A stretch of DNA of 64,000 nt from an uncultured delta proteobacterium (GTDB lineage: Bacteria > Myxococcota_A > Polyangia > Haliangiales > Haliangiaceae): positions 4,096,001 through 4,160,000 of the forward strand of contig CAWKDB010000010.1 of NCBI GenBank assembly GCA_963848295.1. Direction: 5' to 3'. This document shows positions 42,219 to 61,308 of the stretch, piece by piece. How positions within the stretch are numbered: position 1 is the first letter of the stretch; each line of letters begins with the position of its first letter. The notes below the pieces were generated by a model, which ran no database searches, had not been told where the DNA came from, and worked only from the letters and a program-made list of their open reading frames with translations. The position numbers and the translations under genes are program-made.

Positions 42219-43556
42219 CTACGGGCGGACGTGGTGTGGACCGCGCCCGCGCTCGGTCAGTCGCGGTCGCGGGCCGAACGCCTCGGGCGCCGCGCAGTGC
42301 GAGGTGGGTGCGAAGCCGATCTTCTTGTTGGCGACATCGATCACCGTGACGAAGGCGCGCATGAACGCGTCGCCCATCGTCGCGTTGCCTTGGTCGCCAC
42401 CGCCGTACACCACGAGGCAGTACTGGCCGCCACCGGTGTCGTAGAAGTACGACGCGAGCGCGGGGGCGCTGATCGTGATCGAGCCACCCCCGACGCCGGA
42501 GAACGTCAGCGAGAGCTTCGGCAACATCGCATCGACGGTCGCGGAAGTCGTCCCGGAAGACGCGGTGACGCAGCCAGCGGTGTCGGAATTCGAAGTCGTC
42601 GGGTCGGTGAGCGTCTGGCTCGGGAACAGCGACTTGAATGCGGTGTTCGCGTTGAGATCCTTGACCAGCGCGGTCTCGGCAGCGCTCGGGATATAGAACA
42701 GGCTCGTGCCCGTATCGACGATCGGGTTATCGAAGGTCGCGGCGGTCACGCCGAGGTTCGTGCCGCCGATCGCCATCGCCGTCATGTCGGCCGAATAGAA
42801 GTCGGCGTTGTCGCCGGTCGACAGCAGCGGCGTGTATTGCACGGGCGAAGCGACGTGAGTCTCGTCGTAGCCGCCGAGCCACATCGTGCCGTCGGTCGGA
42901 CACAGCTCGAAGCCCATGACCTTGGCCACACCCGCCGCGGTCACCGCGTCGAAGTAGGCGGTCGTGCCGGGATCGAGGAGCGCCGCTGGCCCCATGCCGA
43001 AGATGCCCTGATATTCGTTCCCCGCGAAGAACTGCGGGTTCGTGCTCTGCGACTTGATATCGACGAAGTCGAGCGACACGCTCGGCGTGCCGTGGTCGAG
43101 CGCGACGGTGTCGGAGTAGATCGATCCGGACCAGCCGCTGTTGTCGGCGTACGACGCTTGATCGCTCTTGCCGGTCGCGCTCGCCGAGGAGCCGGGCGCG
43201 TAGAGCGGCGACATTCCGCTGCACGTCGAGCAACCGGAACCGGCGAGGCCAGTCACCGTCGAACCGGTGTCGAGGTCGAGCTTGAACGTCTTGCCCGAGG
43301 CGGTGAGCGCGGGCAGGTAGAACTCGCCCTGATCGGCGCCGCTCGGCGTGGACAGCGGGATCGAATAGACGCCATTCATCGGCCCGGTGGCATCGGACGA
43401 CGACGAGCCGTCGACCGGGATCGCGCCGTCGCCGTCGGTGCCTCCGTCGTGAAGCGAATGCGAGGCGTCGGTGTTGCCGTTCGGGTTGGAGCCGGCGCTG
43501 CAACCGGTGACGAGCCCAAGAGTCATGACGAGCATCGAACGGAACTGCACTCGCAT
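42219..43556 (-). CDS. Pepsin-like (A1-family) aspartic protease lipoprotein
   Basis: Two catalytic motifs LDTGS and VDTGTS, flap Tyr (SYADNS), GIFGMG, MGDAFMRAFVTVID...KIGFA. Confidence 0.88.
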   Translation of the reverse strand: MRVQFRSMLVMTLGLVTGCSAGSNPNGNTDASHSLHDGGTDGDGAIPVDGSSSSDATGPMNGVYSIPLSTPSGADQGEFYLPALTASGKTFKLDLDTGSTVTGLAGSGCSTCSGMSPLYAPGSSASATGKSDQASYADNSGWSGSIYSDTVALDHGTPSVSLDFVDIKSQSTNPQFFAGNEYQGIFGMGPAALLDPGTTAYFDAVTAAGVAKVMGFELCPTDGTMWLGGYDETHVASPVQYTPLLSTGDNADFYSADMTAMAIGGTNLGVTAATFDNPIVDTGTSLFYIPSAAETALVKDLNANTAFKSLFPSQTLTDPTTSNSDTAGCVTASSGTTSATVDAMLPKLSLTFSGVGGGSITISAPALASYFYDTGGGQYCLVVYGGGDQGNATMGDAFMRAFVTVIDVANKKIGFAPTSHCAAPEAFGPRPRLTERGRGPHHVRP

Positions 43557-43764
43557 GGCGGACACGCTAGCCGCGGCCGTCGTGCGTTGGCGCTTTCAGC
43601 CTCGAACAGCCGATGACACTCGAGTGCGCAGAGTGTGCAAATCGTAACTTCCCGGTCGCAGTGACCGGCGATCCGCATCGTGCGCCTCGGCGACAGCGCA
43701 CGACCCATCGTGCCCCACGCGAGGACACAGCGCGCTCGTGCGCGAGACCCTCTCGAGGTGCGCG

Positions 43765-44261: not shown

Positions 44262-46217
44262 ATGGATGCCGGGCCGGAATTCGAGCGTTGTCTCGCACTC
44301 GTCGTCGCCAGCGTCGAACGCACGGCGAAGCGCGTCCATGGTGCCGCCGACCTGCCGCACTTGCCACTGCCGATCAGCGCCGAGCCCGGCACGCCCGCGT
44401 ACGAGATGGCGACCGCGCTGGGTCTGCTGCCCGACGAGCTCGAGCTCGTGTGGTCGCTGATCGCGCGCGCAGTCGAGCCGTCGATCGCGGCGCATGCGCG
44501 TGACGTGTTCGGCGCCGACGCGTTGCTCGGCGTCAGCCTCGCCCATCACATCGCATGGCGCGAGCTGTCGCCCGAGCGCAGTCGCGCGCTCCTCGCCGTG
44601 CTCGATCGCGGCCACCGCCTGCGCACGAGCGGCATCCTCGTGCCGGTCGGCGACGGGCCGTACGACGTCCAATCGCCGTGGACCACGAGCCCGCGCGTGT
44701 GCAACTTCATCCGCGGCTCGCGCGACGTCGATCCCGAGCTCTCCGCGATCGGCGGCCTCGTCGAGCCCGGCCGCGTCTACCACTCGGCCGCGCAGGAAGC
44801 GACGCTCGGCCAGCTCCGGCACTGGCTCGGTGCCTCGGCCGCCGCGACGATCCAGCTCGACGGGCGGGCCGGCTCGGGTCGCCGCACCGCGGTGGCGATC
44901 GCGGCCGCACCGCGCCGGACGATCGCGGTCGACTTCGCGCGCGTCTCGGGCCGTCGCGCGCTGCCGACGCTGCTCGCGCTGTGGCGCGAGGTCCTGCTGC
45001 TCGACGCCGTACCGGTGATCGCGAACCTCGACGATCTGTGGGCGCGGCTGCCGCCCGACGACGAGCTCGAGCAAGCGTTGGTCGGCGCGCTCGATGCGAT
45101 CGACGGCCCGCTGATCGTGACGACGTCGTCGGGACCGCTCGAGCTCCGCGCGTCGCGCCGTCTCGTGCTCAATGCGCGGTGGCCGCTGCCGGATGCGGCG
45201 ACGCGCCGGCGCTTGTGGAGCGAGCTCCTGCCCGAGCGGCCCGCAGACAACGTGCTCGATCTCGTCGCCGATCGCTACGAGCTCGGAGCCGGCGGCATCG
45301 TCGCGGCGGCGCGGTCGGCGCAACATCGTGCCGGGCGGCGCGACGGCGTCCCGGTGCTTGGCGAGCTGGTCGCGAGCGTCCAAGACAACATCGCCGAGCG
45401 CCTCGGCGAGCTCGCGAAGCGCGTCGAGGTCACGCAAGAGTGGAGCGAGCTCGTCTTGCCGGCCGAGACGCGCGACGACGTCGCGATGTTGATCGGTCGC
45501 ATTCGCAACGCGCACGTCGTGCTCGACGGCTGGGGCTTTCGCAAGAAGCTCGCCCGCGGCGGCGGCGTCGCGGCGCTGTTCTCGGGACCGCCCGGCACCG
45601 GCAAGACGATGGTCGCCGGCCTCATCGCCCGAGAGCTCGAGCTCGAGCTCTATCAAGTCGACCTGTCGCGCATCGTGTCGAAGTGGATCGGCGAGACCGA
45701 GAAGCAGCTCGCGCGCGTGTTCGAGGCGGCCGAGGCCGGCCACGCGCTGCTGCTGTTCGACGAGGCCGACGCGCTGTTCGCCAAGCGCTCGGCCGAGGTC
45801 AAGTCGGCGGTCGATCGCTACGCGAACCTCGAGGTGAACTACTTGCTCCAGCGCGTCGAGAGCTTCGGCGGCGTCGTCGTGCTGACCACGAACCTCGACA
45901 GCAGCATCGATCCCGCGCTGCGCCGCCGGCTCGCGAGTCACATCGTGTTCGGACCACCCGAGGTCGGCGAACGCGAGCGGCTGTGGCACACGATGCTCGA
46001 CACGCGCGCGCCGCGCGACCCCAACCTCGATCTGCGCGCCCTCGCCGAGGAGTTCGCCGACATGAGCGGCGCGAACATCCGCAACGCGACACTCGCCGCG
46101 GCCTTCATCGCCGCCGACGAGGGCCGGCCGATCGGCGCGAGCCACCTGCGCCGCGCCGCGCACAGCGAGTATCGAGCGATGGGGCGCGTGCTGAGTCGCG
46201 GCCCGAACGGCCGGTGA
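44262..46217 (+). CDS. AAA+ ATPase of the eCIS-associated (Afp15/Pvc15-like) type
   Basis: Degenerate first AAA (GRAGSGRRT); active second [55 protein letters not shown]. Confidence 0.85.
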
Positions 46218-47302: not shown

Positions 47303-47983
47303 TCACGACTCGCGATGGCCCGCCGGCGGCAGCAGCCCTTGCTCGGTGCAGTTGAGCATCACGATCGCGCTGTGAAAGAACGCGTAGTCGGCGGCGAGCA
47401 CGATCGCGCCGAGCGCCGCGAGCCACGCCGCCGCCGGGCTCGCGGCAACACCGGCGACGAGCGCTGCGGAGACGGTGACGAACCACGCGACGCGTCCCGG
47501 CCGCCAGCTGCGCTCGAAGCGCGCGATCACTTCGGCGATCGGTGCCGCGCCGCGGTCGACGAGGATCACTTTCGTATGCGGCGGCAACTGCCACGCGGCG
47601 CGCATCACGTCCTCGCCGGGAATGTAGCTCGAGATGTACGCCGTCAGCGCGAGGTCGCGCGGAACGACGAACTTCAGACCGACCCGACGAATCGCCTGCG
47701 TCGCGATCTCGATGTACGTGCCGGTCGGCACGGCGATATCCATGCCGTTGGTCACGCGCAGCACGAGCGCTTGGCTGAGACACGCGTCGCGCCCGATCTT
47801 CGCGCCGAGCGTCACGTCACCGGCGCCGACGAACACGACGTCGAGCGCGCGCCGCCGCCATTCGTCGTCGGTCTCCTGCAACGCGGGGAGGTTCTTGCTC
47901 ACGCGCCGCAGGTGACGCACGCCGCGGCCGAACGACAGGCCGAGCAGGCCCGCATAGAGCGCGGCGAACACGAGCACCATCAC
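47303..47983 (-). CDS. Hypothetical membrane protein
   Basis: One N-terminal and two C-terminal hydrophobic segments; overlaps the upstream stop codon. Confidence 0.6.
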   Translation of the reverse strand: MMVLVFAALYAGLLGLSFGRGVRHLRRVSKNLPALQETDDEWRRRALDVVFVGAGDVTLGAKIGRDACLSQALVLRVTNGMDIAVPTGTYIEIATQAIRRVGLKFVVPRDLALTAYISSYIPGEDVMRAAWQLPPHTKVILVDRGAAPIAEVIARFERSWRPGRVAWFVTVSAALVAGVAASPAAAWLAALGAIVLAADYAFFHSAIVMLNCTEQGLLPPAGHRES

Positions 47984-48690
47984 CGAATAGCTTGCAGCAA
48001 CGCCGCGAGCTTTGCCTCGTCGATCACGCCGAACTTCGCTTCGATGCCGGTGCCGACCATGAACGCGTCGACGTAGGGCACGTAGGTCCGGGCGTTCTCG
48101 GCGGTGACGCCCGACGCGAGCGCGATCGCCGCGTCACCGGCGCCCTCATGAAGCGCACGCAGTCGTTCGGGATCGGCGGCCTGCCCGGTGCCCGGACCGC
48201 TCGTGCACAGCACGTCCATGTAGCGCGCCGCGATCGCCGCCGTGCGGCCGAGATCGCCGAGCGCGATGTCGCGCTGGTACTTGAACGCCGTGCCACCGAA
48301 GTAGAGGCCGGTCCAGTTGCGTGCGCGGCGCGCCGCGACCATCTCCTCGGCGCCGGGCTGCTCGGTCGCGCGCTCGTCGATGCTCGCGTTGTCAGACCAG
48401 ATGCCATCGATCCGCCCACCACAGCCGTCGAGTGCGGTCGCGAGCGCCGCCGCTGGGCGACGAGACAACAGGTTCACGCCGACCCACAGCGAAGGGTACT
48501 TCTCGCGGACCTCGACGATCAGCTCGAGCACTTCGGGCTCGCGCAGCCCTTGATCGATCAGGAACAAGCCTTTAGCGCCGGCGCGATGGACGACCGCGAT
48601 GCTGCGCAGGGCCTCTTCGCGACTCACCGGATGGACGACCGGGAGGACGACCGGGCTCGTACCGAAGATCTCGATGATTCGATTCATCAT
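47980..48690 (-). CDS. BtpA/SgcQ-like TIM-barrel protein
   Basis: VLPVVH, VGVNLL, FKYQ, DVLCTSGPGTG, LASGVTAEN, FMVGTGI. Confidence 0.75.
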   Translation of the reverse strand: MMNRIIEIFGTSPVVLPVVHPVSREEALRSIAVVHRAGAKGLFLIDQGLREPEVLELIVEVREKYPSLWVGVNLLSRRPAAALATALDGCGGRIDGIWSDNASIDERATEQPGAEEMVAARRARNWTGLYFGGTAFKYQRDIALGDLGRTAAIAARYMDVLCTSGPGTGQAADPERLRALHEGAGDAAIALASGVTAENARTYVPYVDAFMVGTGIEAKFGVIDEAKLAALLQAIR

Positions 48691-48697
48691 GCTTCAT

Positions 48698-49588
48698 CCT
48701 CGCATGACGTCAGGGCCGACGACCACGCATCGCAAGGCGCTCGCGACCTCTGAGGCCCGCATCGCGCTAACTCGTGCCGAGCGCGAAGGTCTTGCTCAAC
48801 ATCGCGACCAGCCGATCGAGCGTCGTGCGGCCGGGCAGCGGCAGCAGGCCGGCCTCGACGATCGCGCCGAGCTTCGCATCGCCGCGCCATGCGGTGCGCT
48901 GGCGGCTCATGATCGCGATCACGTTGGCGGTGTAGTCGCCGGTGAACGGGTGCTCGCCGGTGTGCCAGTAGGCGATCATCGCCGCCAGCGCGAACACGTC
49001 GGCCGCCGGTGTCGGCGGATCTTCGGGCCGTGCGAGCACCTCGGGCGCAAAGTACACGTGAGGGAAGCACAGCGGCACACCGTAGTCGGGCTTGGTCATC
49101 TTCGCGTGGAACACGTCGCAGCGCGGCGCGATGCCGGTCACGCGGTCACCGTCGATGTACACCAGCTCCGGGCGAAGGCCGCCGAGCACGATGCCGCGCG
49201 CATGTGCCGCCGCGACGACCTCGGCGACCGCGAGGCCGAGCCGAGCTGTCGTAGCCGCGTCCATCACCGTCGGGTGATCTGCGCTGGGGATGCCCGCAGG
49301 TTCGTCTTCGACCAGCCCGTCGTAGCGGGCCTCGCCGGTCGCGGTGACCGGGCCGATGTGCCGTAGCGCCGCAATCCCAGGCAGCTCGTAGCCGAGGCGC
49401 TGGCGGACCTGATCGAGTGGATCGCGTTGCGGCGTCCCGATCGAGATCAAGACGGAGGTCTGGCGCTCGCGATCGCGGCCGCGGTACAGCCCTCGGTCCG
49501 CGCCGCCGGCGAGCTCCTCGCGTAGCTCGTAGCGAGCGTGATCGAGTGTGGCACCTAGCGGGAGGTTGTCGCGCAGGAACGCTTCGCG
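48698..49588. repeat. ~890-bp direct repeat, copy 1
   Basis: Near-identical to 53170..54059; starts cctcgcatgacgtcagggccgacgacc, ends gcgcaggaacgcttcgcg. Confidence 0.92.
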
Positions 49589-50245
49589 AAATGTCGCGGC
49601 GTCGCGCATGAGCTTGTCGATCGTGTCCGTCGAAACCGACAACTCGCCGCCGGTGTCTTCTCGCACGATCCGAAATCCAGTGCCAGCTCGCGACACGCGA
49701 ACCGTCGGATTGCCATGAACCTCCGCGATCCCGCCGGCTAGCGCCTCTCGGAGTGCGGATCCGGAGCGGGAGAGCAGCGCGTCGAGCAGGCACCGCGCAA
49801 CACCCTCCGGATCATTCGCAAGCGCAAATCCCCCGTCCTCGCTCACCTGGACAAACGGTGCTTCGATGGCCCCAAACAGGACCTCGAGAGCATCGTCGAC
49901 CTCGGGCACATCACCGCCGTAGTCGGCGTCTTCGTAGCGAAGCGTATAGTGCTTGCGAAGCCACGCGACGAAGTGGCGTGCTGGTTCGACCGGGGTGATT
50001 CGATACCAGATGCGAATCATCATCGGTGCTACCTCGACCCCGATGACCGTGCCGGGAAAGCGTGCAGGCTCGTCTGCCCTCGCGTGCAAGGCTGTCTCGA
50101 TCCCCGAGACACCGTAAGAGAGCATGAAGGTGTGAGGCGAAACTGGATCCCGGGCCGAGTAGCGCAGACTCACAATGTACTTCTCGACGGAAGTGACATC
50201 GAACTCGCGATGATCTGCGGTACGAAGAATGATGTCCTGAATCAC
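48767..50245 (-). CDS. Putative immunity protein 3: variable N-terminal domain plus Ser/Thr pseudokinase domain
   Basis: Paralog of 51202..52689 and 53238..54716; kinase-like C-half (HARGIVLGGLRPEL, YFAPE, DVFALA, GEHPF). Confidence 0.75.
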   Translation of the reverse strand: MIQDIILRTADHREFDVTSVEKYIVSLRYSARDPVSPHTFMLSYGVSGIETALHARADEPARFPGTVIGVEVAPMMIRIWYRITPVEPARHFVAWLRKHYTLRYEDADYGGDVPEVDDALEVLFGAIEAPFVQVSEDGGFALANDPEGVARCLLDALLSRSGSALREALAGGIAEVHGNPTVRVSRAGTGFRIVREDTGGELSVSTDTIDKLMRDAATFREAFLRDNLPLGATLDHARYELREELAGGADRGLYRGRDRERQTSVLISIGTPQRDPLDQVRQRLGYELPGIAALRHIGPVTATGEARYDGLVEDEPAGIPSADHPTVMDAATTARLGLAVAEVVAAAHARGIVLGGLRPELVYIDGDRVTGIAPRCDVFHAKMTKPDYGVPLCFPHVYFAPEVLARPEDPPTPAADVFALAAMIAYWHTGEHPFTGDYTANVIAIMSRQRTAWRGDAKLGAIVEAGLLPLPGRTTLDRLVAMLSKTFALGTS

Positions 50246-50415
50246 GGAGCCTTCTTGTGACCGGCCGACATCACGGCGTCGTTGTAAGCATCAGCCTGCA
50301 CCTGAACTGCCACCGAGGCGAGCTTCTCGGAATCACCAAACGCAAGCTCCTCTCCGTTGCCAAGACGAAGCATGAACGTATGAGGCGCGATCGGGTCGGG
50401 TGCACCGAGACGCAG
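50242..50415 (-). pseudogene. Chimeric relic: immunity N-terminal fragment joined to a toxin C-terminal tip
   Basis: Reads LRLGAPDPIAPHTFML...QVQADAYNDAVMSAGHKKAP*. PDPIAPHTF matches 53238..54716, and AY..AVMSAGH matches the toxin tips. Confidence 0.7.
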
Positions 50416-50416
50416 C

Positions 50417-50920
50417 TCACGCGTTCGCTACCACCTGCGCGTACGTAGTCAGGTAGGACGCGAGTAACGTCGGGAGATCCCGAGCGGCGTCACTCGAGAT
50501 CAGGCCATAGCGCGCGCTCGTGTACGGACCGGTCGTGATCTCGGCGGGCATTCGAGCGACGACATCCTTCCTGCCGACGAGCCCGTAACCACGCTCCTGT
50601 TCGCGTCGCGTGCGCCATTGAAAGTAGCGTTGTTTCTCGACCGCAGCTGCCAGATTGTGAGACTCCACGCGCTTCATAATGCTCGATCGATCGGCGTCGA
50701 ACGCTACGATTCGCGGGCCCTGTTGCACGGGTGCGTCGGCGCGGAGCTCGAACACGATGACGTAGCCGGTCGCAGGAGCATCGGCGAGCATTCCCTCAAC
50801 GATCGGAACCTCGATCGCGAGCGCGTCTCCGACCGCCTTCGCGAGCTCGTCGACATGCCACGGCTGCTCGGCCACCGCCGCCGGGCGTGCGTTCACAGGA
50901 ACGAGAATGGTGACCTTCAT
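50417..50920 (-). CDS. Hypothetical protein (candidate orphan immunity protein)
   Basis: 167-aa ORF with AAGGAG upstream, inside the orphan cassette; no recognised family. Confidence 0.55.
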   Translation of the reverse strand: MKVTILVPVNARPAAVAEQPWHVDELAKAVGDALAIEVPIVEGMLADAPATGYVIVFELRADAPVQQGPRIVAFDADRSSIMKRVESHNLAAAVEKQRYFQWRTRREQERGYGLVGRKDVVARMPAEITTGPYTSARYGLISSDAARDLPTLLASYLTTYAQVVANA

Positions 50921-50926
50921 GAACGC

Positions 50927-51106
50927 CTACGGCTCCTTCGGGAAGCGCGCTACGTCGATGTCGTCCAGAAGACGTTCACACACGGTCAGCAATTCACGAT
51001 CGGGAAGCGGGTGCAATGCGATGGAAGCGAGGATTCGAGCGCGCGTCGTCGCATTGTTCGAGCGAAGCTTCTCGAGCCGATATAGCTGGTCATCTTCTTC
51101 GGTCAC
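50927..51106 (-). pseudogene. Short ORF or gene fragment (59 aa, HEAT-like)
   Basis: VTEEDDQLYRLEKLRSNNATTRARILASIALHPLPDRELLTVCERLLDDIDVARFPKEP*; below the ORF-track cutoff. Confidence 0.4.
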
Positions 51107-51201
51107 TGTGCAGTCTCGAGATCGTTACGGAAGTCGCGCCGTGTCGTCGCGGTTCACCAGATTAGAATTCGGCACGCCCGGCGGCACGACTATCGTCCAG
51201 T

Positions 51202-52689
51202 TCACGGTGCGTCGACGCGACCTACGAACCCGTCTTGCAGTGCGGTCAGCAGACCGTCGAGCGAAGCACGGCCAGGCATCGGCTTTAGCCCGGACTCGAC
51301 GATCGCGCCGAGCGCCGCATCGCCGCGCCATGGAGTGCGTTGGCGCGTGACGATCGCCATCACGTTCGCCGAGTACTCGCCGGTGAACGGATGGTTGCCG
51401 GTGTGCCAGAACGCGATCATCGCAGCGAGCGCGAACACGTCCGCGGCCGCGGTCGCGGGATCCTGCGGGCGTGCGAGCACCTCGGGCGCGAAGTAGATGT
51501 GCGGGAAGCACAGCGCGACGCCATGATCGGGCTTGGTCATCGAGGCGTGAAATAGGTCGCACCGCGGCGTGATGCCGACGACGCGATCGCCATCGAGGAA
51601 CACGAGCTCGGGACGCAGGCCTCCGAGCACCAAGCCGCGAGCGTGCGCCGCGGCGATAGTCTTGCCGACCGCGAGCCCGCGCTGCGCCGCCTCAGTGGCG
51701 CCGAGGTTCGGCCATCCCGTCGCGCGAACTCCTGGCGGCGGCTCCTCTTCGACGAGCCCGTCGTAGCGCGCCTCACCGGCGGAGGCGAGCGGCCCGATGT
51801 GAAGCAGCGCGGCAACGCCTGGCACCTCATAGGCAAGCCGCTGCTCGAGTTTGGCGACCGGCTCGCGCTGAGGCGTTCCGAGCGTGATCAGCACCGGCAC
51901 GTTGCGCTTCACGTCCCGCCCGCGATAGAGCCCGCGGTCCGGGCTACCGAACAGCTCGTCTTCGATCTCGAACCGCCCGCCGTCGAGCGTCAAACCCTTC
52001 GGAAAGTCCCTCAGCCGATAGTTGTTACGGACCTGCACCGCGGCGGCGAACAGCTGATCGATTTGCTCGACCGACATCGTCATCGCTTCGCCGATGTCAT
52101 CGCGCGCGATCCGCCACACGTCTCCGCTCCTCGTCGCGTGTAGCGAGCTATCGAACCGTACCTCGTCAGTCGAGCGCTTCGAGAGCTGGTCGTGCCACGC
52201 CGGGCCTTGGCTCTCGGAGAGCAACGCGTCGATCAGTGCCTTGGCGATCCCGACCGGGTCGTTGATGACCTCCAATCCATGCTCGTCGTACTGCGCCACC
52301 GAAGGCGGGTGGACCTCCCCGAACAGGCGTTCGAAGTTGGCATCGACGTCCGGGACCTCGCCGCCATAGTCGTCGTCAAAGAACCGAACTGGGTATCGTC
52401 CACGCAGCCAGGCAACGAAATGCCGCGCGGTCTCGACCTCCGAGCTCAGATAATGAATGCCGATTCGATGGCTGTGGACATCGAACAGGATCGATCCCGT
52501 CGGAAACTGATCTGAGTGAGCTACTCGTTCCGCAATCGCGTCGTCGAGCAGCTCCTGCGCATACATCGCGATAAACGTGTGCGCGTCATGCGGATCGCGC
52601 GCGACGAGTGGCAGCGCCGCCAGATAGGCCTCGACCTCGCCCACATCGAACTCCCCGGTGACCGGCTCGATCGCGATGTCCTGGATCAC
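51202..52689 (-). CDS. Putative immunity protein 2: variable N-terminal domain plus pseudokinase domain
   Basis: GTGA overlap with the orphan toxin tip; same architecture, with a more diverged kinase-like half. Confidence 0.75.
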   Translation of the reverse strand: MIQDIAIEPVTGEFDVGEVEAYLAALPLVARDPHDAHTFIAMYAQELLDDAIAERVAHSDQFPTGSILFDVHSHRIGIHYLSSEVETARHFVAWLRGRYPVRFFDDDYGGEVPDVDANFERLFGEVHPPSVAQYDEHGLEVINDPVGIAKALIDALLSESQGPAWHDQLSKRSTDEVRFDSSLHATRSGDVWRIARDDIGEAMTMSVEQIDQLFAAAVQVRNNYRLRDFPKGLTLDGGRFEIEDELFGSPDRGLYRGRDVKRNVPVLITLGTPQREPVAKLEQRLAYEVPGVAALLHIGPLASAGEARYDGLVEEEPPPGVRATGWPNLGATEAAQRGLAVGKTIAAAHARGLVLGGLRPELVFLDGDRVVGITPRCDLFHASMTKPDHGVALCFPHIYFAPEVLARPQDPATAAADVFALAAMIAFWHTGNHPFTGEYSANVMAIVTRQRTPWRGDAALGAIVESGLKPMPGRASLDGLLTALQDGFVGRVDAP

Positions 52690-53000
52690 TGGCCCACCTT
52701 GTGCCCGGCGCTCATAACGTCGTCCTGGTATGCCCGGAATTGCGGCTTGTTCGTACCGGCATTGTAGGGGTTGTTCGTGTCGCCGGTTCCCTTCGGAACT
52801 GCGCGACCTTCCGCATCGACCTTGAACGCGACGCCATCCTGGCCGGGCGCGGGTGTCGCGGTCTTTACCTCGACGCTGTACATGACCTTACCGGCGTTCT
52901 CTCTGTCACCCTTCGGCTTGACGCGGATGAGTGTTCCATCCGTGAACGAGTAGACTGCCTGGTCCTGCTTTGCGGTTTTGGCCGGATCCGTCGGGTCACC
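52686..53000 (-). pseudogene. Orphan toxin C-terminal module
   Basis: DPTDPAK..KQDQAVYSFTDGTLIRVKPKGD...YSVEVKTATPA..QDGVAFKVD..G..VPKG..D.NNPYN...VMSAGH, colinear with the large toxin's C-terminus. Confidence 0.85.
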
Positions 53001-53169
53001 GATGGGTTGGGTTGCTTGCAGCGCGTGCTGGTAGCTCAGGTCGGTAATTGACCAGCTCTTCGGCCGAGAAAATCCCAAGGTTGTTGGGGGCATCGAGCAT
53101 TGCGTGGGAGATCAGGAGCCCCGAGCCATCATCGAGTTCGATGACAACACCCGCCTCGCGCGGTCTCCG

Positions 53170-54059
53170 CCTCGCATGACGTCAGGGCCGACGACCACGC
53201 ATCGCAAGGCGATCGCGACCTCGGAGCCCGCATCGCGCTAACTCGTGCCGAGCGCGAAGGTCTCGCTCAACATCGCGACCAGCCGATCGAGCGTCGTGCG
53301 GCCGGGCAACGGCAGCAGGCCGGACTCGACGATCGCACCGAGCTTCGCATCGCCGCGCCATGGCGTGCGCTGGCGGCTCATGATCGCGATCACATTGGCG
53401 GAGTAGTCGCCGGTGAACGGGTGCTCGCCGGTGTGCCAGTAGGCGATCATCGCCGCCAGCGCGAACACGTCGGCCGCGGGCGTCGGCGGATCTTCGGGCC
53501 GTGCGAGCACCTCGGGCGCGAAGTAGACGTGAGGGAAGCACAGCGGCACACCGTAGTCGGGCTTGGTCATCTTCGCGTGGAACACGTCGCAGCGCGGCGC
53601 GATGCCGGTCACGCGGTCACCGTCGATGTACACCAGCTCCGGGCGAAGGCCGCCGAGCACGATGCCGCGCGCATGTGCCGCGGCGACGACCTCGGCGACC
53701 GCGAGGCCGAGCCGAGCCGTCGTGGCCGCGCCCATCACCGTCGGGTGATCTGCGCTGGGGATGCCCGCAGGTTCGTCCTCGACCAGCCCGTCGTAGCGGG
53801 CCTCGCCGATCGCGGTGACCGGCCCGATGTGCCGTAGCGCCGCAATCCCAGGCAGCTCGTAGCCGAGGCGCTGGCGGACCTGATCGAGTGGATCGCGTTG
53901 CGGCGTCCCGATCGAGATCAAGACGGAGGTCTGGCGCTCGCGATCGCGGCCGCGGTACAGCCCTCGGTCCGCGCCGCCGGCGAGCTCCTCGCGCAACTCG
54001 TAGCGACCGTCATCGAGTGTGGCACCTAGCGGGAGGTGGTCGCGCAGGAACGCTTCGCG
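53170..54059. repeat. ~890-bp direct repeat, copy 2
   Basis: See 48698..49588. Confidence 0.92.
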
Positions 54060-54716
54060 CAGCTGAGACGCGTCGCCGGCGAGTCGCTCGATCGTCTCCG
54101 GTGACAGCGTCAGCTCGCCGCGGTCATCGCTGCGAATCCGCCACCCCATACCGTCCCAGCTCGCAACAAGCCCACGCGCGATCTGGAGTGGCGCCTGGCC
54201 AGCGGCGACCGGTGGCTGTTGCAACTCGGCACCGCGCCCCGACAGCAGGGCTAGCACCAGCTCGTGCGCGATGTCGTCGGGATCGTTGATGAGCTCGAGC
54301 CCGTTCTCATCGAAGCTCGAGACCACCGGCGGATGAACCTTGCCGAACAGTAGCTCGAGCTTGTCGTCTACGTGTTCCGTGCGATCGCGACCGTAGTCGT
54401 TGTCGAGAACCTTCAGCGCGTAACGCTCGCGCAACCATTGAACGAAGCGCCTAGGCTCTTCGGTCCGGCTGGTCGAGTATCCGAGGGTGATCACCTGGGG
54501 GTGAACTGCGACGACGACGATCGGGCCTGGGAAGCCTGTAGCGCCACCCGTTCGCTCTGCGAGCGCCTCGTCGAGCACGTCTCGCGCATAGCCCAGAATG
54601 AACGTATGAGGTGCGATCGGGTCGGGCGCCGCCCACGCACGGCTCGTAAGGAATGTCTCGATCGCCGGGACATCGAACGTCCCGGTTAGCGGCTCTAGAG
54701 CGATATCAGTGATCAT
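53238..54716 (-). CDS. Putative cognate immunity protein 1: variable N-terminal domain plus pseudokinase domain
   Basis: ATG overlaps (ATGA) the reconstructed native toxin stop at 54713-54715. Confidence 0.78.
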   Translation of the reverse strand: MITDIALEPLTGTFDVPAIETFLTSRAWAAPDPIAPHTFILGYARDVLDEALAERTGGATGFPGPIVVVAVHPQVITLGYSTSRTEEPRRFVQWLRERYALKVLDNDYGRDRTEHVDDKLELLFGKVHPPVVSSFDENGLELINDPDDIAHELVLALLSGRGAELQQPPVAAGQAPLQIARGLVASWDGMGWRIRSDDRGELTLSPETIERLAGDASQLREAFLRDHLPLGATLDDGRYELREELAGGADRGLYRGRDRERQTSVLISIGTPQRDPLDQVRQRLGYELPGIAALRHIGPVTAIGEARYDGLVEDEPAGIPSADHPTVMGAATTARLGLAVAEVVAAAHARGIVLGGLRPELVYIDGDRVTGIAPRCDVFHAKMTKPDYGVPLCFPHVYFAPEVLARPEDPPTPAADVFALAAMIAYWHTGEHPFTGDYSANVIAIMSRQRTPWRGDAKLGAIVESGLLPLPGRTTLDRLVAMLSETFALGTS

Positions 54717-57700
54717 GGTCCAGCCCGGTGGCCGGCGCCCATGACGGCCGACTCGTATGCATCGTACTGCGTCTTGTTCGTTCCGTCGTTGTACGGGTTG
54801 TTCGCGCGTCGCGTACTCGAGCCCCGCGCAGGATCAGGGCGCGACCGTTGTCTGGCACCCACGCGTTCGCCGTCTTCCGAGTTCCCGTTGCGTCCTCGAC
54901 CTGAATCGCTCCTCGAAAGCGGATAACGAAATCCCAGCCGAGCGTCTGCAGGAACCGATACAGCTTCTGATCGCCGAAGCCGCGATCCGCCAGCACTGTG
55001 ATCTTCACGTCGGGCGCGACGCAGTCGTGCAGCCGTTCGAGCAACCGATACTCGTGGTCATTCCGCTTGTTCTTGAGCGTGGTCTTGCTCACCGTCATCC
55101 AGATCAACGGGGTCGCCCGCCCATGGCTGGTGATCAGGTAGCCCGCCAGCGTCGCGTGGTCGTCGCCATCGAACTCTGTCCAGTCGAGCGCGACGACGAT
55201 CTCCTTGCGCTCTGCGACGACAAACTGGGCCCACGGTCGGAACAACGTCCACACGTCGATGCCCGGGTTTCCGAGCAAACGATCGGTCTGCTCACCCCGG
55301 ACGTCATCCGGACCCTTCGGTACGGGATCACCCTGTATATCCACTTTGAACGAAACCCCCGCTTGATCGGATGCCGGCGTCGCAGTCTTGACCTCGACAC
55401 TGTATGTGAGCTTGCCCGGATTGTTATTCTTGTCACCCTTTGGCTTGATGCGGATCAGGGTCCCATCGGTGAAGTCATAGGCGACCTGGTCCTGCATCTT
55501 CGTGGGGTCCGTAGGATCCTTCGTGGGATCGATGGCCCGCGTCGCCGCACCTCCTGCAACCTCGAGGTCTAGCAAAGCTTCCATCTCTGCCTGGGTCTTG
55601 CCGTCGAGCTGAGACGCGAGGCGCTTCGCCGCCCCGCCCGCCGTTCCGCTGTCATAGTTCGTGAGCCGATTCTTCAGGTCCGTCGTCGGTCCTTTGAAGG
55701 CCTTTCGACTGGCCATCTCTGTAGTCGCACGATTCGTAGCAGCGGTCTGTGCCTCGTTCTTTGCAGCGGCCTTTGCAGCCTTGTCAGCGGCCTTGCCCGC
55801 GAGTTTGATCGCGGTGTCCGACTTGGCCCCGGGCTTCGCCATCTCGCTGTCGTAGGTGGCAACCCCTGCAGCGCGCGTTGCTTCTCGCACGCGCACGGCG
55901 GCGTCGGGAGGAATGTCCTGGTACTTGGCGAGCTCGCGCCCCGAGTGGCTATTGGCCGTGTCGAAGATCCGCGTCGCATCGCCTGGTGGAATGTTGCCGG
56001 CCTTGGTCTGCAGGTCGGTCGGACCCGCTAGTCCGGCTTCGTCACCGGTTACCAGGCCCGCGGGCGGCTCGTTGAATATCACGACGCTACCGAGAGCCTC
56101 GTGGTCGACCGTATAGACGTCGCCGCTCCATACGAAGTTGCCGTGCTCATCGGTCGCGATCATTCGCGACTTGAAGACACCGACGTTCTTGTTCCCGGCC
56201 CAGGATCCGATGCGCTCGGGCTGCAGGATCTTGATCTGGACGAGCGGCTCCTTGGCGCCGGGCGTCGGGTTGCCGATCCTATCACCACCCTTGGAGGCGT
56301 ACGGGGTCTGAACTGTGTGCTCGGCGAGCTTGTTGCGCGCGCAGAACGCGACGTCGGCTGCCGACGGGAACACGTTGACCTTGTTGAGCTCGCCGTTACG
56401 ACCGCCGCCCTGCACGAGCTCTCCGAAGCTCGTCGACCCACCCTTGATCATCTTGCCGGCAGTCAACGGATGCGAGTGAGCGACGGCGCGCACGCCCGGG
56501 AACCCGGCCCAATCGACCGCCCCGGGCTCGCCGCGGATGATGAAGAACTCGCCGTTCGCCTCGCCGATGCCCCATTCGACGCTGCGCGTATCGAAGTGGC
56601 GCGGCGCTTCCATCCCGATCGCTTGAAACGCGGCGGGATCTCCGGCGGCGAGCTTGGCGAGCACCGCTTGGGCAGTCGACTCGTTCGCTAGCTTCGTACC
56701 GATCGCGACGTTGGTCCGCGTCAGCACGGCGGACGGATCCATCGTCGGGGTGATCTCGACCGCCGGCGTCGCAGCCTGGTCCGGCGTGGCGGGGGCGGTA
56801 CCCTTCGTGTCGATCGCGTCGATGAAGGCTTGCTGGTCCTTGGCCGAGAGCTCGCCCAGATGCGAACGTGCGGCCGCGATGTCAGCCGCGTTGTTCTGTT
56901 CGACCGCATTCTTGAGCGCGAGCAGCGCAGTGCGTTGCTGTTCGGTGAGCGAGTAGATCTGCGCGTCGTCGAGCTTCGCTCGCCTCGCGACCTCGACGAT
57001 CTGCTTGCCCGTCGGTGTGATCGCCCAATCGGGCACGGCCTCGGCGACCAGGATCGGCGTCGCGTTGTCGCCCTTCGGCGTGATTCGCCAGGTCTGCGCG
57101 CCGGTTCCCGGATCGCGCTCGCCTTCCGGAACGACGGTCGCGCCTTCGGCGGTCTCGAGCGCGCGCATCCGCGCGACCTCGGCGGCCCCGGCCTCGAAGA
57201 AGTTCGGACCGCGCTGCTTCATCGTCATCGCCATCTCGGCGCCGAGCGAGTTCGCGCGCAGGTCGTTCAACGTCTTCATCTGCTTGTCGAGCACGTCACC
57301 GTTGATGCCCTGCGCCTTGGCACCTTTCTTGTCGTTATTCGCCGCGTCTTTGAGCGCCTCGAGCGCGTCCATCTCCTTGTCGATCTGCGCTTGGTCTCTG
57401 TGAGCCGCCTCGATCACATCCGCGGCCGATACCTTGCCGCCCCTCGTCACCCTGTCCTGCATCACGAGGTTGGCCTTGCGCTCGGTGGCCCAACCATCGA
57501 GTGCGAGCTGCCATTTCTTGCCCGCAAACGCGGCGCTGACCTCGAGCTTCTTGATCGGCGACTCCATCAGCCGGCCACCGATCGAGAAGATCACGGCCTG
57601 TGACACCGCCATGATGATCGCGTCATGCTGCTCCTGCTCGGTCATCGGCTTCGCGCCGAACATCTGTTTGACCTTCGCCTCGACCCAGCCGGTCATGATC

Positions 57701-60700
57701 CCGATGCCGCTGTTGATCATCGACTGACCGATCGCGTCGCCTGCGGTCGCGGCGAACTTCGCGAGCTTACCGGCCTCTTCGCCGGCCTTGAACAACCTCG
57801 ACAGCCCGAGCGCCTTGACGCCCATGCCGACGCCGCGCATCGCGCCGAACATCACCAGGTTCTTCGCGAAGTCGCTGAGCAGCGCACCGATGCTGTGATC
57901 CCTCGAGAACGCCACGTTCGACAGCACCGTGAATGTCGCGGTCTCGGCGAGGAAGCCGGCCACCGCGGCCGTGTTGCGCGCGACGCCGATGCCGCCGACC
58001 ACGACCTCCGTGCCATCGACGACCAGCGCTGTGCCGCCGAGCGTGGCCGACAGCGCCGAACCCGCGCCCATGCTGACGAGCGTGATCGCGACCATCGCGA
58101 TGATCATCACGATCATCTGGTCTTCGTGGATCGTCTTGAGCTCGTCCTGGACCTCCTTGAGGAAGCCCTGGAACTTCGTGTCCGCGGCGAGCGTCTCGAA
58201 GTCGGTGCGGGCCTTGTCCATCGCTTTCTTGTCGCCGGCCTCGCCCTTCTTGATCAGCGCGTAGATCGCCTTCCACTGCGCGTAGTAGTCCTTCGCTCGC
58301 ACCTTGAGCGCGGTGGCGTCTCGCCGGTCTCCGCCGAGCGTCGTCCACGAGTCCACCGCCTGATCGAGCGAGGTCCACTCGTGCTCGAGCTGGGCGGCCT
58401 GCGCGGCGACCTGCGATTCGAAGATCAAGTTGCGGGCGTCTTGCGTCGTGCCCGCCGCTTTCGGATCGGCCTTGGACGGGTCACCGAGCATCTGCGACAT
58501 CATCTGCGCGCGCAGCTGTCCGAGTTGCTTGCGCTCCTCGATCTCGCGCTTGCCCATACCGTCGGTGTCGAAGTCTTGCTTCGCGTCGGTCGTATCGCTC
58601 GCCTGATACGACGCCGACTGCGGCGTGCTGAGCCCGCGCTCGAGGATCTCGATCTCCAGCGTCAGCGTGTGACGCGACGCCGCGGCGATCATCTGCGCGG
58701 CACTGTCGACGAGGTCACACGACAGCAGCGCGTTCGCCCACATCTCGGCGTCCTGGCGCAGCGGATGATCCGGCGGCAGCCCGTCGGTCGTGCCCTTGTC
58801 GGCCGAATCCTTGTTGGCGGCTTTGTAGGCGTCGAGTCGCGCGCCATCCCCCGCGAGCCCGGCGCCGGCGCGCGAGATGATGTCGGACTGCTTCTTGGAC
58901 TGAGCGTCCCACTTCGCGACGTCGCCATCGTCTTGGGTCTCGAGCTGGGAGACCCGGTGCTCGATCATCGTCGCCGCCGTGATGACCTTCTCCTCGAGCT
59001 GGAACTGCTGCGCGATCGGCGCGATCGAGGAGCGCAGCACGTTGGCGTTCACGCGCATCTCCTCGAGGATGCGCTCGCGCGGTCGCGCGTCCTTGGGATC
59101 GATCGGGCCCGCTTGCGACAACGCAGCCTCGGCTGCCTCGGGGCCGTTGGAGCGCGCGAGCTGTGCGGCGCGGCCGATCGGATTCTCGACCTCGGCGAAC
59201 GTGCCACGCGTATCGTCCTCGAGGCCGTACAGCGGGTGCGCGACCTGGAGCCGGAAGCTCTCCGTCGATGGCAAGCCGAGCGCGAGCACGATCTCCTCGG
59301 GCGTCGCCGTCGCCGGGCTGATCAGCCGGTGCCAGCCGGGCAGGTCTTTGACATCCTCGAGCTGGATGTTCTGAGACGAGTTGAGCAGCTTCGGCGGGCC
59401 GGCGAGCTCGGGATGCCGCTCCTTGAACTTGACCTGATCGATCCCGACCATGTTGCCCTTCGCGAGGGCGGTGATGACGAGCGGATCGATCGGATGCGAC
59501 ACGAGGACGTCGTCGGGACCGGGCTCCTTGCCGTTCGCGATCTTCGCTTGCGCGTAGCGCGGGATCTCGCGCTGCAGCGATTCCGCGATCCGGCGCGCGA
59601 GCGCGTTGCCGACCTCGGTGCCGACGCTCGGGAAGTACGAGTCGGGCCCCTTCGACACCGGCGATCCGCCGTCGACGCTCGCTGGCTCTACCTCGGTCAC
59701 GACGCGCGACTCTGCGACCAGCTTGCCGATCAGCTCGGGGCGCACGAGCGAATCGAGGTCGGTCTTCGCGGTGATCTGTGCAGCCATCGCGGTGGGAAAC
59801 TGCGTGACACCGGCCGCCGTCCACGTCACCGTGTCGTCGTAGGTCGCGAACGGCAGGGCGCGCAGTTGATCGGCAGCGCCGGCGGCGATCTGCACCAGGT
59901 ACTGCTCGTAGTAGGCCTGCGTCGTCGGCCCGGGGTCCACCGTGCCCGCTTGGCAGCGCTGCAGTTGCAGCCCGGTGCGCATGACGTCGCCGACCGCGCC
60001 CGCGAAGTTGCCCAGGCGCTCGAGCCCGGCGTCGCGCTCGGCGCCCTGATCCTCCGCGCCGATCGGCTGGCGTCGAGCGTCCGGATCCTTGTGCGCGTCG
60101 GCTTGCTGCGCGGTGTGCGCGAGCTCGTGCGCGAGCAACGCGTCGCCCGCCACCCCGGACGTCGGTGCGCTCGAGCCCATGACGACGTTCTGCCCGACGG
60201 CGAACGCGGCGGCCCCGTGCTCGCTCGCCATCCCGGCCGCGGTCGGCCCGGTGTGGATCTTCGCGCCCGAGACGTCGGCGCCGACGACCGCCGACATCCG
60301 CTGCGCGGTCGCGTGATCGAGCGAACGGCCCGGGCCGAGCTCGGCCTCCATCCCGTCGAGCGACTTGCGATTGACGATCGGCTGCGCGTCGCTCGCGGAC
60401 CGCGGAGCTTGATTCGTCTCCGCGGCTTGCGCGGCCGCTGGATCGGCGGCGGCGAGCTCGGGTGGCAGCTTGTGGGTCTGCTTCCAGTACTGGACGCCGG
60501 CGCGGACGCGCGCGACGAGCAACGGGACCAGCGCCTCGGCACCGGTGGCGGTGCGCGCCTCGGGGACCCAGCGCTGGATCAAGGTCACCGTCGACTTCGC
60601 GGGCAGCGCCGCGTACTTCGCGAAGTATTGCGCGATGTACGGACACGCGACCGCCGAGCCGATCATGCCGAGCTCGGCATCCGCCGCCGCGGTGACGAAC

Positions 60701-61308
60701 GGCCTCAGCCGCTCGAGAAACGAGCTCTTCAGCATCTGCCCGGGGGCGAGCGTGCCGCCGTCGACGAGAAGCTGTTGCACCGCCGAGGCCCCGGCCGTGA
60801 CCTGCGCCGCGACCTGATCGGCGTGTTGTTCCGCCGCCGAGCCCTCGGCACCGACCGCGACCTTGCGCTGCGGCGCCGGTGTCGCGCCTCGCTGCTGCGC
60901 GACGTGCGTGAGCTCGTGCGCCATCAACGCTTGGTCGTGCTCGCTCTCGCCGGGCCCCAGGAAGATGTCGTTGCCGTACGCGAACGCGCGCGCGCGCATC
61001 GCGTGCACCGTTTTTTGCGACAGCGGATCTTTGTGGAACCGCGCACCGCTGACATCCACGCCGGTGTCCGCCCGCACCAGGGCCGCGAGGTCCGCGGGTA
61101 CGGGCTGTCCCTCGCCCCGCTTCTCCACCGCGAGCGTCGCGGCGTCTTCGAGATCGTTCGGGGCGCGGGCGGCGCCGAGGTCGCGCCACAACTGGGCCTC
61201 GCGGCGCGCGTGATCGGGCGCGACGCCATCGCTTCGCGGGCTCCGTCGGGCCTCGGCGACCGGGCGCTCGGCGAGCTCGGGACGATGAAGTCTCTCGCGC
61301 TCGCTCAT
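54713..61308 (-). CDS. DUF4157 (eCIS core domain) polymorphic toxin, with its C-terminal tip interrupted by a transposase fragment
   Basis: Two DUF4157 units (ARAFAYGNDI...AHELTHVAQQ; AAAFAVGQNV...AHELAHTAQQ), LQRC, hydrophobic region IVMIIAMVAITLVSMGAG, JAB-like HSHP...PSAAD, C-terminal variable module. Confidence 0.82.
54803..55299 (-). mobile_element. Internal fragment of an IS4-like DDE transposase (497 bp, no ends seen)
   Basis: QTDRLLGN..IDVW, VALDWTEFD, HGRATPLIW, VLADRGFGD, DFVIRFRG. Covers the first two catalytic Asp regions only. Confidence 0.82.

Follow-up and report, generated by a model that had tools for sequence, protein, structure and literature searches.

The minus strand between positions 48698 and 61308 of the 64,000-nt window analysed here (G000:C10:4096001-4160000, from a genome of 7.8 Mb that is 85% complete) encodes a very large protein and three paralogs, each of which begins within the end of a sequence resembling a toxin tip, and it raises the question of which parts of this locus are toxin, which are immunity, and against whom they are used. 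The strand carries an open reading frame (ORF) of 2200 amino acids (aa), the three paralogs (492, 495 and 492 aa) and two smaller ORFs of 135 and 167 aa; the nearest named relatives of the window's genes are Kofleriaceae, in keeping with the myxobacterial origin proposed in an earlier, sequence-only reading. It seems likely that the locus specifies an antibacterial polymorphic toxin of the eCIS (extracellular contractile injection system) or PVC (Photorhabdus virulence cassette) type, with a swappable C-terminal tip and an array of cognate, cytoplasmic immunity genes. The type of system is known, the toxin-immunity pair is new and unnamed in the libraries searched, and the fusion of immunity to a pseudokinase is odd but optional.

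Tip-like sequences stop at positions 54713, 52686 and 50242, and each stop shares a 4-nt overlap (ATGA or GTGA) with the start of the next paralog, as the sequence-only reading had described. The paralogs are 53–72% identical over their whole lengths and consist of three parts, an N-terminal domain of ~125 aa that we refer to as ImmN, a middle domain of ~100 aa, and a pseudokinase. Paralog 1 (53238-54716, 492 aa) has its ImmN at 54336-54716 and its pseudokinase from about 54050; the same parts make up paralog 2 (51202-52689, 495 aa; ImmN 52312-52689) and paralog 3 (48767-50245, 492 aa; ImmN 49868-50245), whose pseudokinase is 97% identical to that of paralog 1. Three homologous tips had also been claimed; one is the main tip and one a real orphan cassette (52686-53093), a 135-aa ORF with homology from about residue 24 that is 64% identical to the main tip and lacks two conserved upstream helices, and the third is a recombination scar (50242-50416), in which a 35-bp relic of the paralog 1 ImmN (50369-50403) is followed by the last ~17 tip codons. 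A putative toxin, an overlapping downstream gene and an orphan cassette are all present; the polymorphic-toxin layout is upheld.

Of the three parts of the paralogs, only ImmN tracks the tip. The 27 loci L019-L045 were searched apart from L042, a duplicate, and L034, which breaks off within the tip; an ImmN profile built without the tested loci gave a match no more than about 100 nt behind the tip in 21 of the 25 that remain. A wider profile adds three, one of them fused in frame with the tip, for a total of 24 of 25 loci, several of which share a genome and one of which (L022) is close to a training locus; with either profile there is no ImmN behind the tip in L041. In 401 genomes of the phylum there are four ImmN matches, and all four lie behind a tip or a tip scar. 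The similarities of tips and ImmN domains also co-vary (Spearman 0.64 over 21 pairs, and 0 of 1000 permutations as high), although shared ancestry could give this too. The linkage of tip and ImmN is beyond chance, and the tie between the tip and a downstream family, foreseen from this single locus, extends to other genomes.

The sequence-only reading had treated pseudokinase and immunity as one unit, and this part has to be revised, with the immunity signal residing in the N-terminal domain, often alone, and the pseudokinase being an occasional passenger. ImmN stands alone in L002, L003 (twice), L019, L023, L025 and L031, and in database proteins of 127–130 aa, and in both metagenome loci L002 and L003 the gene after the tip encodes the N-domain by itself, again with a 4-nt overlap; elsewhere ImmN is found as tandem copies or joined to other small domains, of which there are at least two. 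There is thus strong genomic evidence that ImmN is the putative active part of the antidote, and, provided that the tip is toxic, we are highly confident that ImmN neutralises it. ImmN is modelled as a soluble alpha/beta domain, and a cytoplasmic target is therefore indicated. We note also that in L033 (G447:C226) no stop separates tip and ImmN, which form a single open frame. ImmN is most often fused to a ~125-aa domain with the motif T-D-G-x-x-x-W-P and no Pfam match (L013:7078-7443, L020-L022, L024, L026, L037, L043, L044 and L060), which is probably a second immunity domain.

The tip itself belongs to a family of 144 clusters at 50% identity, which lies at the extreme C-terminus in 135 of them, behind trunks of many lengths. 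Among the 68 members of at least 300 aa, 13 carry an eCIS_core domain and one, Myxococcus xanthus WP_161606598.1, an annexin domain; one shorter member has PT-TG. The tip is about 150 aa long, with two helices, a five-stranded meander and a final helix bearing a conserved His; near-invariant residues are D, R, P, G, E, A-F-K, G, P, P and H, and K, D, S, K, N and Q are also highly conserved. It has no match in Pfam, NCBIfam or the PDB, in agreement with its earlier description as an unassigned toxin domain. Within this bacterial family it is present in 20 of 138 genomes. Several tip/ImmN cassettes are likewise found in G410 and G530. Broken tips occur in related loci as well, in the second cassette of G410 and in G445; in the latter (L059, G445:C94) a toxin has an apparent frameshift before the tip, and a second eCIS_core protein, a 2252-aa open frame, lies 2 kb on.

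The main toxin gene (54713-61308) begins with two eCIS_core domains (DUF4157, PVC-metallopeptidase; PF13699, E 8e-34) at 60883-61104 and 60097-60321, which had been recognised earlier and in which the HExxHxxQ motifs are intact (HELTHVAQQ at aa 131 and HELAHTAQQ at aa 394). The sole strongly hydrophobic stretch of the trunk, at aa ~1060–1089 (58042-58131), is a possible membrane-crossing segment. Further along lies a pre-tip domain (56065-56757) with the pattern H-x-H-P ... P-S-x-x-D, which resembles JAB/MPN domains by motif only, without a Pfam or PDB sequence match; it is found in 7 of the 144 tip-bearing proteins, and its H-x-H and S-x-x-D are kept in four that were aligned. The segment at 55300-56016 comprises an Ala-rich helical pre-toxin region, both conserved helices and the first three quarters of the tip.

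In the assembly, the remainder of the tip is separated from it by a 497-bp internal piece of an IS4 transposase gene (54803-55299). Insertion sequence (IS) DNA makes the assembled ORF 2200 aa (54706-61308), so that the earlier figure of ~2000 aa holds for the protein without the piece, which had gone unmentioned; the main ORF is not intact as assembled. Residues ~2004–2200 are not toxin, aa 2007–2170 match an IS4 transposase (NF033591, E 3e-30; PF01609), and an annotation would label the gene a transposase fusion. The end of the main tip, YDAYESAVMGAGHRAGP, lies behind the piece in another frame than the large ORF; its 29 codons (54713-54802) hold the final helix and the conserved His, and the tip sequence on either side of the piece matches the orphan tip. 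Four other sites in the genome match the piece at 98–99.4% (G000:C10:1921492-1922776, C2:1406142-1407426, C2:1503435-1504718 and C4:302731-304008), all of them whole IS4 elements of about 1.28 kb with inverted ends; because these near-identical copies have 8–9-bp target duplications, the element has been recently active. At 54803-55299 we sought IS ends and a target duplication and found neither, and the piece is 3 bases shorter, near its ends, than the full copies. In public run X1, one contig passes from 54802 to 55300 and leaves out exactly 497 bases (depth 2.8, with a short side of 41 letters), and an allele without the piece therefore exists; X1 covers 57% of sampled words and is possibly the sample from which the genome came, and rare variants are lost from contigs. 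In runs X1-X4, contigs of the IS depart from the window at 54815 or 55292 and continue into the remaining element, and among the 32 of 66 pieces listed none bridges toxin and IS. We have good confidence that the piece is an assembly artefact or a minor allele, and it is probably not a fixed break.

The array appears to be built of constant and variable parts. Identity between the copies is 42–44% in ImmN, 33–40% in the middle domain and 65–97% in the kinase part, and GC content is 0.61–0.62 in the variable parts against about 0.68. A stretch of 953 bp, 94.8% identical, is common to copies 1 and 3 and extends beyond the stop into a 60-bp 3' flank (48698-48757; repeated at 53170-53229 behind paralog 1, 95%) that ends the block; because of this block, and because the scar before copy 3 contains the relic of the N-domain of copy 1, we conclude that the array grew by recombination, with constant 3' and variable 5' parts. 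It is somewhat probable that the near-identical middle and kinase copies served as the anchors. Two further frames without a family match lie before the scar, one of 57 codons (50927-51100) and the 167-aa ORF (50417-50920), which is single-copy in the genome.

Although the C-terminal part of the paralogs aligns with Hanks-type kinases, the catalytic Asp and Asn are gone from it, as is the DFG motif; an active Ser/Thr kinase was thus rejected, HRDLKPxN having become GGLRPEL and DFG RC[DE], with APE kept. The only strong matches in this genome are the three array copies. Among 17 other regions with long flanks the pseudokinase is found behind ImmN in three, twice as a gene of its own (L002, L003) and once as a fusion (G416), and neutralisation therefore does not need it, since it is missing behind ImmN in the other 14. 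It also occurs with no tip nearby (L004, L006 and P0007).

As for what the tip does, its conserved set consists mostly of basic residues and a His on a small helix/meander domain, and the neighbours in the Atlas that have a name, none of them reaching 0.9, belong for the most part to Ntox families; a nuclease fold was not recovered for it. We lean slightly towards a tip that cuts nucleic acid, RNA more likely than DNA. Among named families, the annexin- and PVC-linked Ntox3 of Haliangium was rejected, as PF15536 matches no tip in five tip-bearing genomes and the tips have no conserved Cys; the same model does recognise a genuine Ntox3 domain elsewhere in one of the tip-bearing relatives (G410:C4:5321228-5321620). 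Ntox6 (PF15544) has no match in five tip-bearing genomes, where no positive control matched either. Ntox47 (PF15540) and PF15657 were also set aside: they are not among the 25 of 26 families listed for 71 members at E<=0.5, and match none of 12 chosen tip members at E<=10; PF15540 matched one of the 138 family genomes, which lacks the tip.

A relation to the BECR-like RNases (bioRxiv 10.64898/2026.08.28.747851 and 10.64898/2026.09.18.752725) is a lead only. The secondary structure and conservation of the tip fit the BECR order of helix, strand 3, long loop, strand 4 and strand 5: as in Ntox47, PF15657 and SRLase1, a helix precedes a meander whose third and fourth strands are connected by a long loop with conserved residues on either side, and there is a late conserved His. 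The P-H at the start of the fourth strand is kept in a tip subgroup (P0123, P0142, P0145, L035 and L036) but replaced in most members, R-x-K in the tip compares with Arg70/Asp72 of SRLase1, and the tip differs in having an extra A-F-K strand, a P-K loop and a final helix, and no significant profile match; an hhalign comparison with only two PF15657 members, using a model that lacked the helix, was not significant. With PT7/PIM7 (bioRxiv 10.1101/2021.10.19.465003; PDB 8owu chain C, toxin or immunity partner) the tip shares 12% identity at a Z within the range of common arrangements; PT7 is reported to have DNase and rRNase activity (PMC13675652).

An eCIS operon with two sheath genes, tube genes and baseplate (J) genes lies at about 901–934 kb of contig C2 (about 911–934 kb by a narrower estimate), in the same genome but in trans rather than next to the toxin. 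It also includes FHA-like and kinase genes, recognised by eye, and has a short eCIS_core gene downstream. Sheath genes are present in all five tip-bearing relatives tested (with no tip-lacking control), and in G411 one lies about 10 kb from the toxin; a VipB search gave no match, and no sheath gene of a type VI secretion system was found in this myxobacterial family. A second protein with two eCIS_core domains is encoded on C2, sharing trunk residues 1–1492 at 43% identity and having a C-terminus unrelated to the tip. The tip swapping that had been anticipated is thus seen within one genome, and the C-termini are not invariant. This paralog (L001:6043-13022; G000:C2 about 478.0–485.0 kb) is about 2130 aa long with a C-terminus of ~640 aa that has no family and a GGDE-like motif by eye, and it is overlapped by a different small gene of 192 aa, also without a family; the two are a candidate for another unnamed toxin/immunity pair.

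We therefore propose a scheme in which a constant trunk, with two DUF4157 metallopeptidase-like domains and a long helical region, would carry a swappable ~150-aa tip. The protein would probably be loaded in trans onto the C2-encoded eCIS and the tip presumably released, and in the cytoplasm of the target the tip would more likely than not cleave nucleic acid. The translationally coupled downstream gene would be the antidote, acting through ImmN; orphan tip/ImmN cassettes would store other specificities, could protect against the variants of relatives, and could recombine into the main gene, with the middle domain and pseudokinase a presumed constant passenger fused to ImmN in this lineage. 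Use against relatives seems a reasonable expectation. The sequence-only reading had spoken of a conflict or kin-discrimination system; the DUF4157 polymorphic-toxin type agrees with the former, and the latter is conjectural.

Other explanations deserve consideration, and the most substantial of them, which we consider unlikely though clearly less so than the rest, is that the tip is toxic without being a nuclease, as some other cytoplasmic enzyme or binder, or that the JAB-like domain is an equally important second toxin or a releasing peptidase. The failure to recover a nuclease fold and the lack of the Ntox47-like P-H in most members would fit this, as would the retained JAB-like motifs and the listing of JAB domains among toxins (PMC3482391); set against it are the conserved basic residues and His and the Ntox-rich neighbours of the tip, and the facts that the JAB-like domain is so rare in the family and that no second immunity gene tracks it. 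It is improbable that this is a decaying relic, in which IS-derived DNA has really destroyed the main toxin and nothing but the immunity genes is preserved. The assembled frame break, the scar in place of a third tip, the orphan tip without its helices and the broken tips of G410 and G445 are what a relic would show, but the piece lacks the ends and target duplications of the four full IS4 copies, and both the X1 contig and the lack of a toxin-IS bridge among the pieces listed speak for an unbroken gene.

Equally doubtful is a part for the pseudokinase in defence, in a sensor-plus-signal protein whose ImmN captures the incoming toxin and whose dead kinase, as a scaffold for host Ser/Thr kinases or their allosteric partner, passes the event on. 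The GGLRP module does recur in conflict-like contexts, behind ImmN (L002), fused to another domain (L003), with ImmN and a second domain (L060) and with HEAT repeats (P0007), with APE and the C-lobe retained, and another Kofleriaceae genome has a 72% identical version that is followed by the same gene; its absence from most ImmN regions and its presence away from tips (L004, L006) count against the idea, however, and the 97% identity of copies 1 and 3 is what a recent duplication or conversion would leave. We can only speculate that Kofleriaceae-like myxobacteria direct released eCIS particles at close relatives, that alleles of a new nuclease and their immunity cassettes set kin groups, and that in some lineages ImmN-pseudokinase signals toxin capture to the kinase network of the cell, much as plant immunity senses attack through decoys and pseudokinases. 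Least probable of all is a eukaryotic or distant prey target, of the sort that many eCIS effectors have, with the downstream gene a chaperone: immunity genes are missing for many PVC/eCIS toxins, whose targets may be distant organisms (PMC3482391; PMC8213781), but a divergent downstream gene that tracks the tip, and orphan cassettes, would be expected only where the producer or its relatives can themselves be harmed.

Several neighbouring genes are worth recording. A 651-aa CDC48-like AAA ATPase (44262-46217, plus strand) lies 2.5 kb from the array, and its likeness suggests a possible Pvc15/Afp15-type loader; in L006 the C-terminal end of an ATPase like this one is followed by a gene for a pseudokinase. 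Behind the array (47303-48690, minus strand) are a BtpA/SgcQ-family gene and a gene for a 226-aa membrane protein, and in a Kofleriaceae locus (L005) the pseudokinase is followed by the same BtpA-like gene, with a similar membrane-protein gene nearby on the opposite strand. A secreted-looking pepsin-like aspartic protease (42219-43565, minus strand; PF00026, E 2e-29) is of a kind uncommon in bacteria.

The locus offers a fairly common toxin domain without a name, along with its immunity domain and several natural alleles in one genome. Its description as an undescribed system was an overstatement, as DUF4157/PVC-metallopeptidase polymorphic toxins with variable tips, many without immunity genes, are already described (Zhang et al. 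2012, PMC3482391), and DUF4157 has been tied to eCIS toxins (Geller et al. 2021, PMC8213781; PMC11297309), whose usual lack of immunity genes was called a mystery (PMC8213781). This locus shares with those toxins the N-terminal HExxHxxQ domains, long linker, variable C-terminal toxin and genomic eCIS operon, and differs in its cognate immunity gene and orphan cassette array, in a tip without a Pfam family, and in lying far from the eCIS operon. The presence here of classical immunity and orphan arrays suggests eCIS use between related bacteria, and a possible route to kin discrimination in a little-studied myxobacterial family. In occurring alone, in tandem or fused, ImmN is like the polyimmunity proteins (PMC3482391), with a partner here, the pseudokinase, that the accessible text of that source does not name. 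The DUF4157-fused PT6 (bioRxiv 10.1101/2021.10.19.465003) required the periplasm in E. coli, in contrast to the cytoplasmic-looking ImmN; PT6 and the other PT families of Nachmias et al. are compared by their description only.

Loci of the contact-dependent inhibition (CDI), Rhs and Maf types have an established layout of orphan toxin/immunity modules, and the present locus resembles them in its toxin, overlapping immunity gene, downstream orphan pairs and lower GC content of the variable parts. It is set apart from them by the lack of a haemagglutinin, Rhs or MafB trunk, by cassettes that are all alleles of one toxin family, and by the fusion of immunity to a constant C-terminal module.
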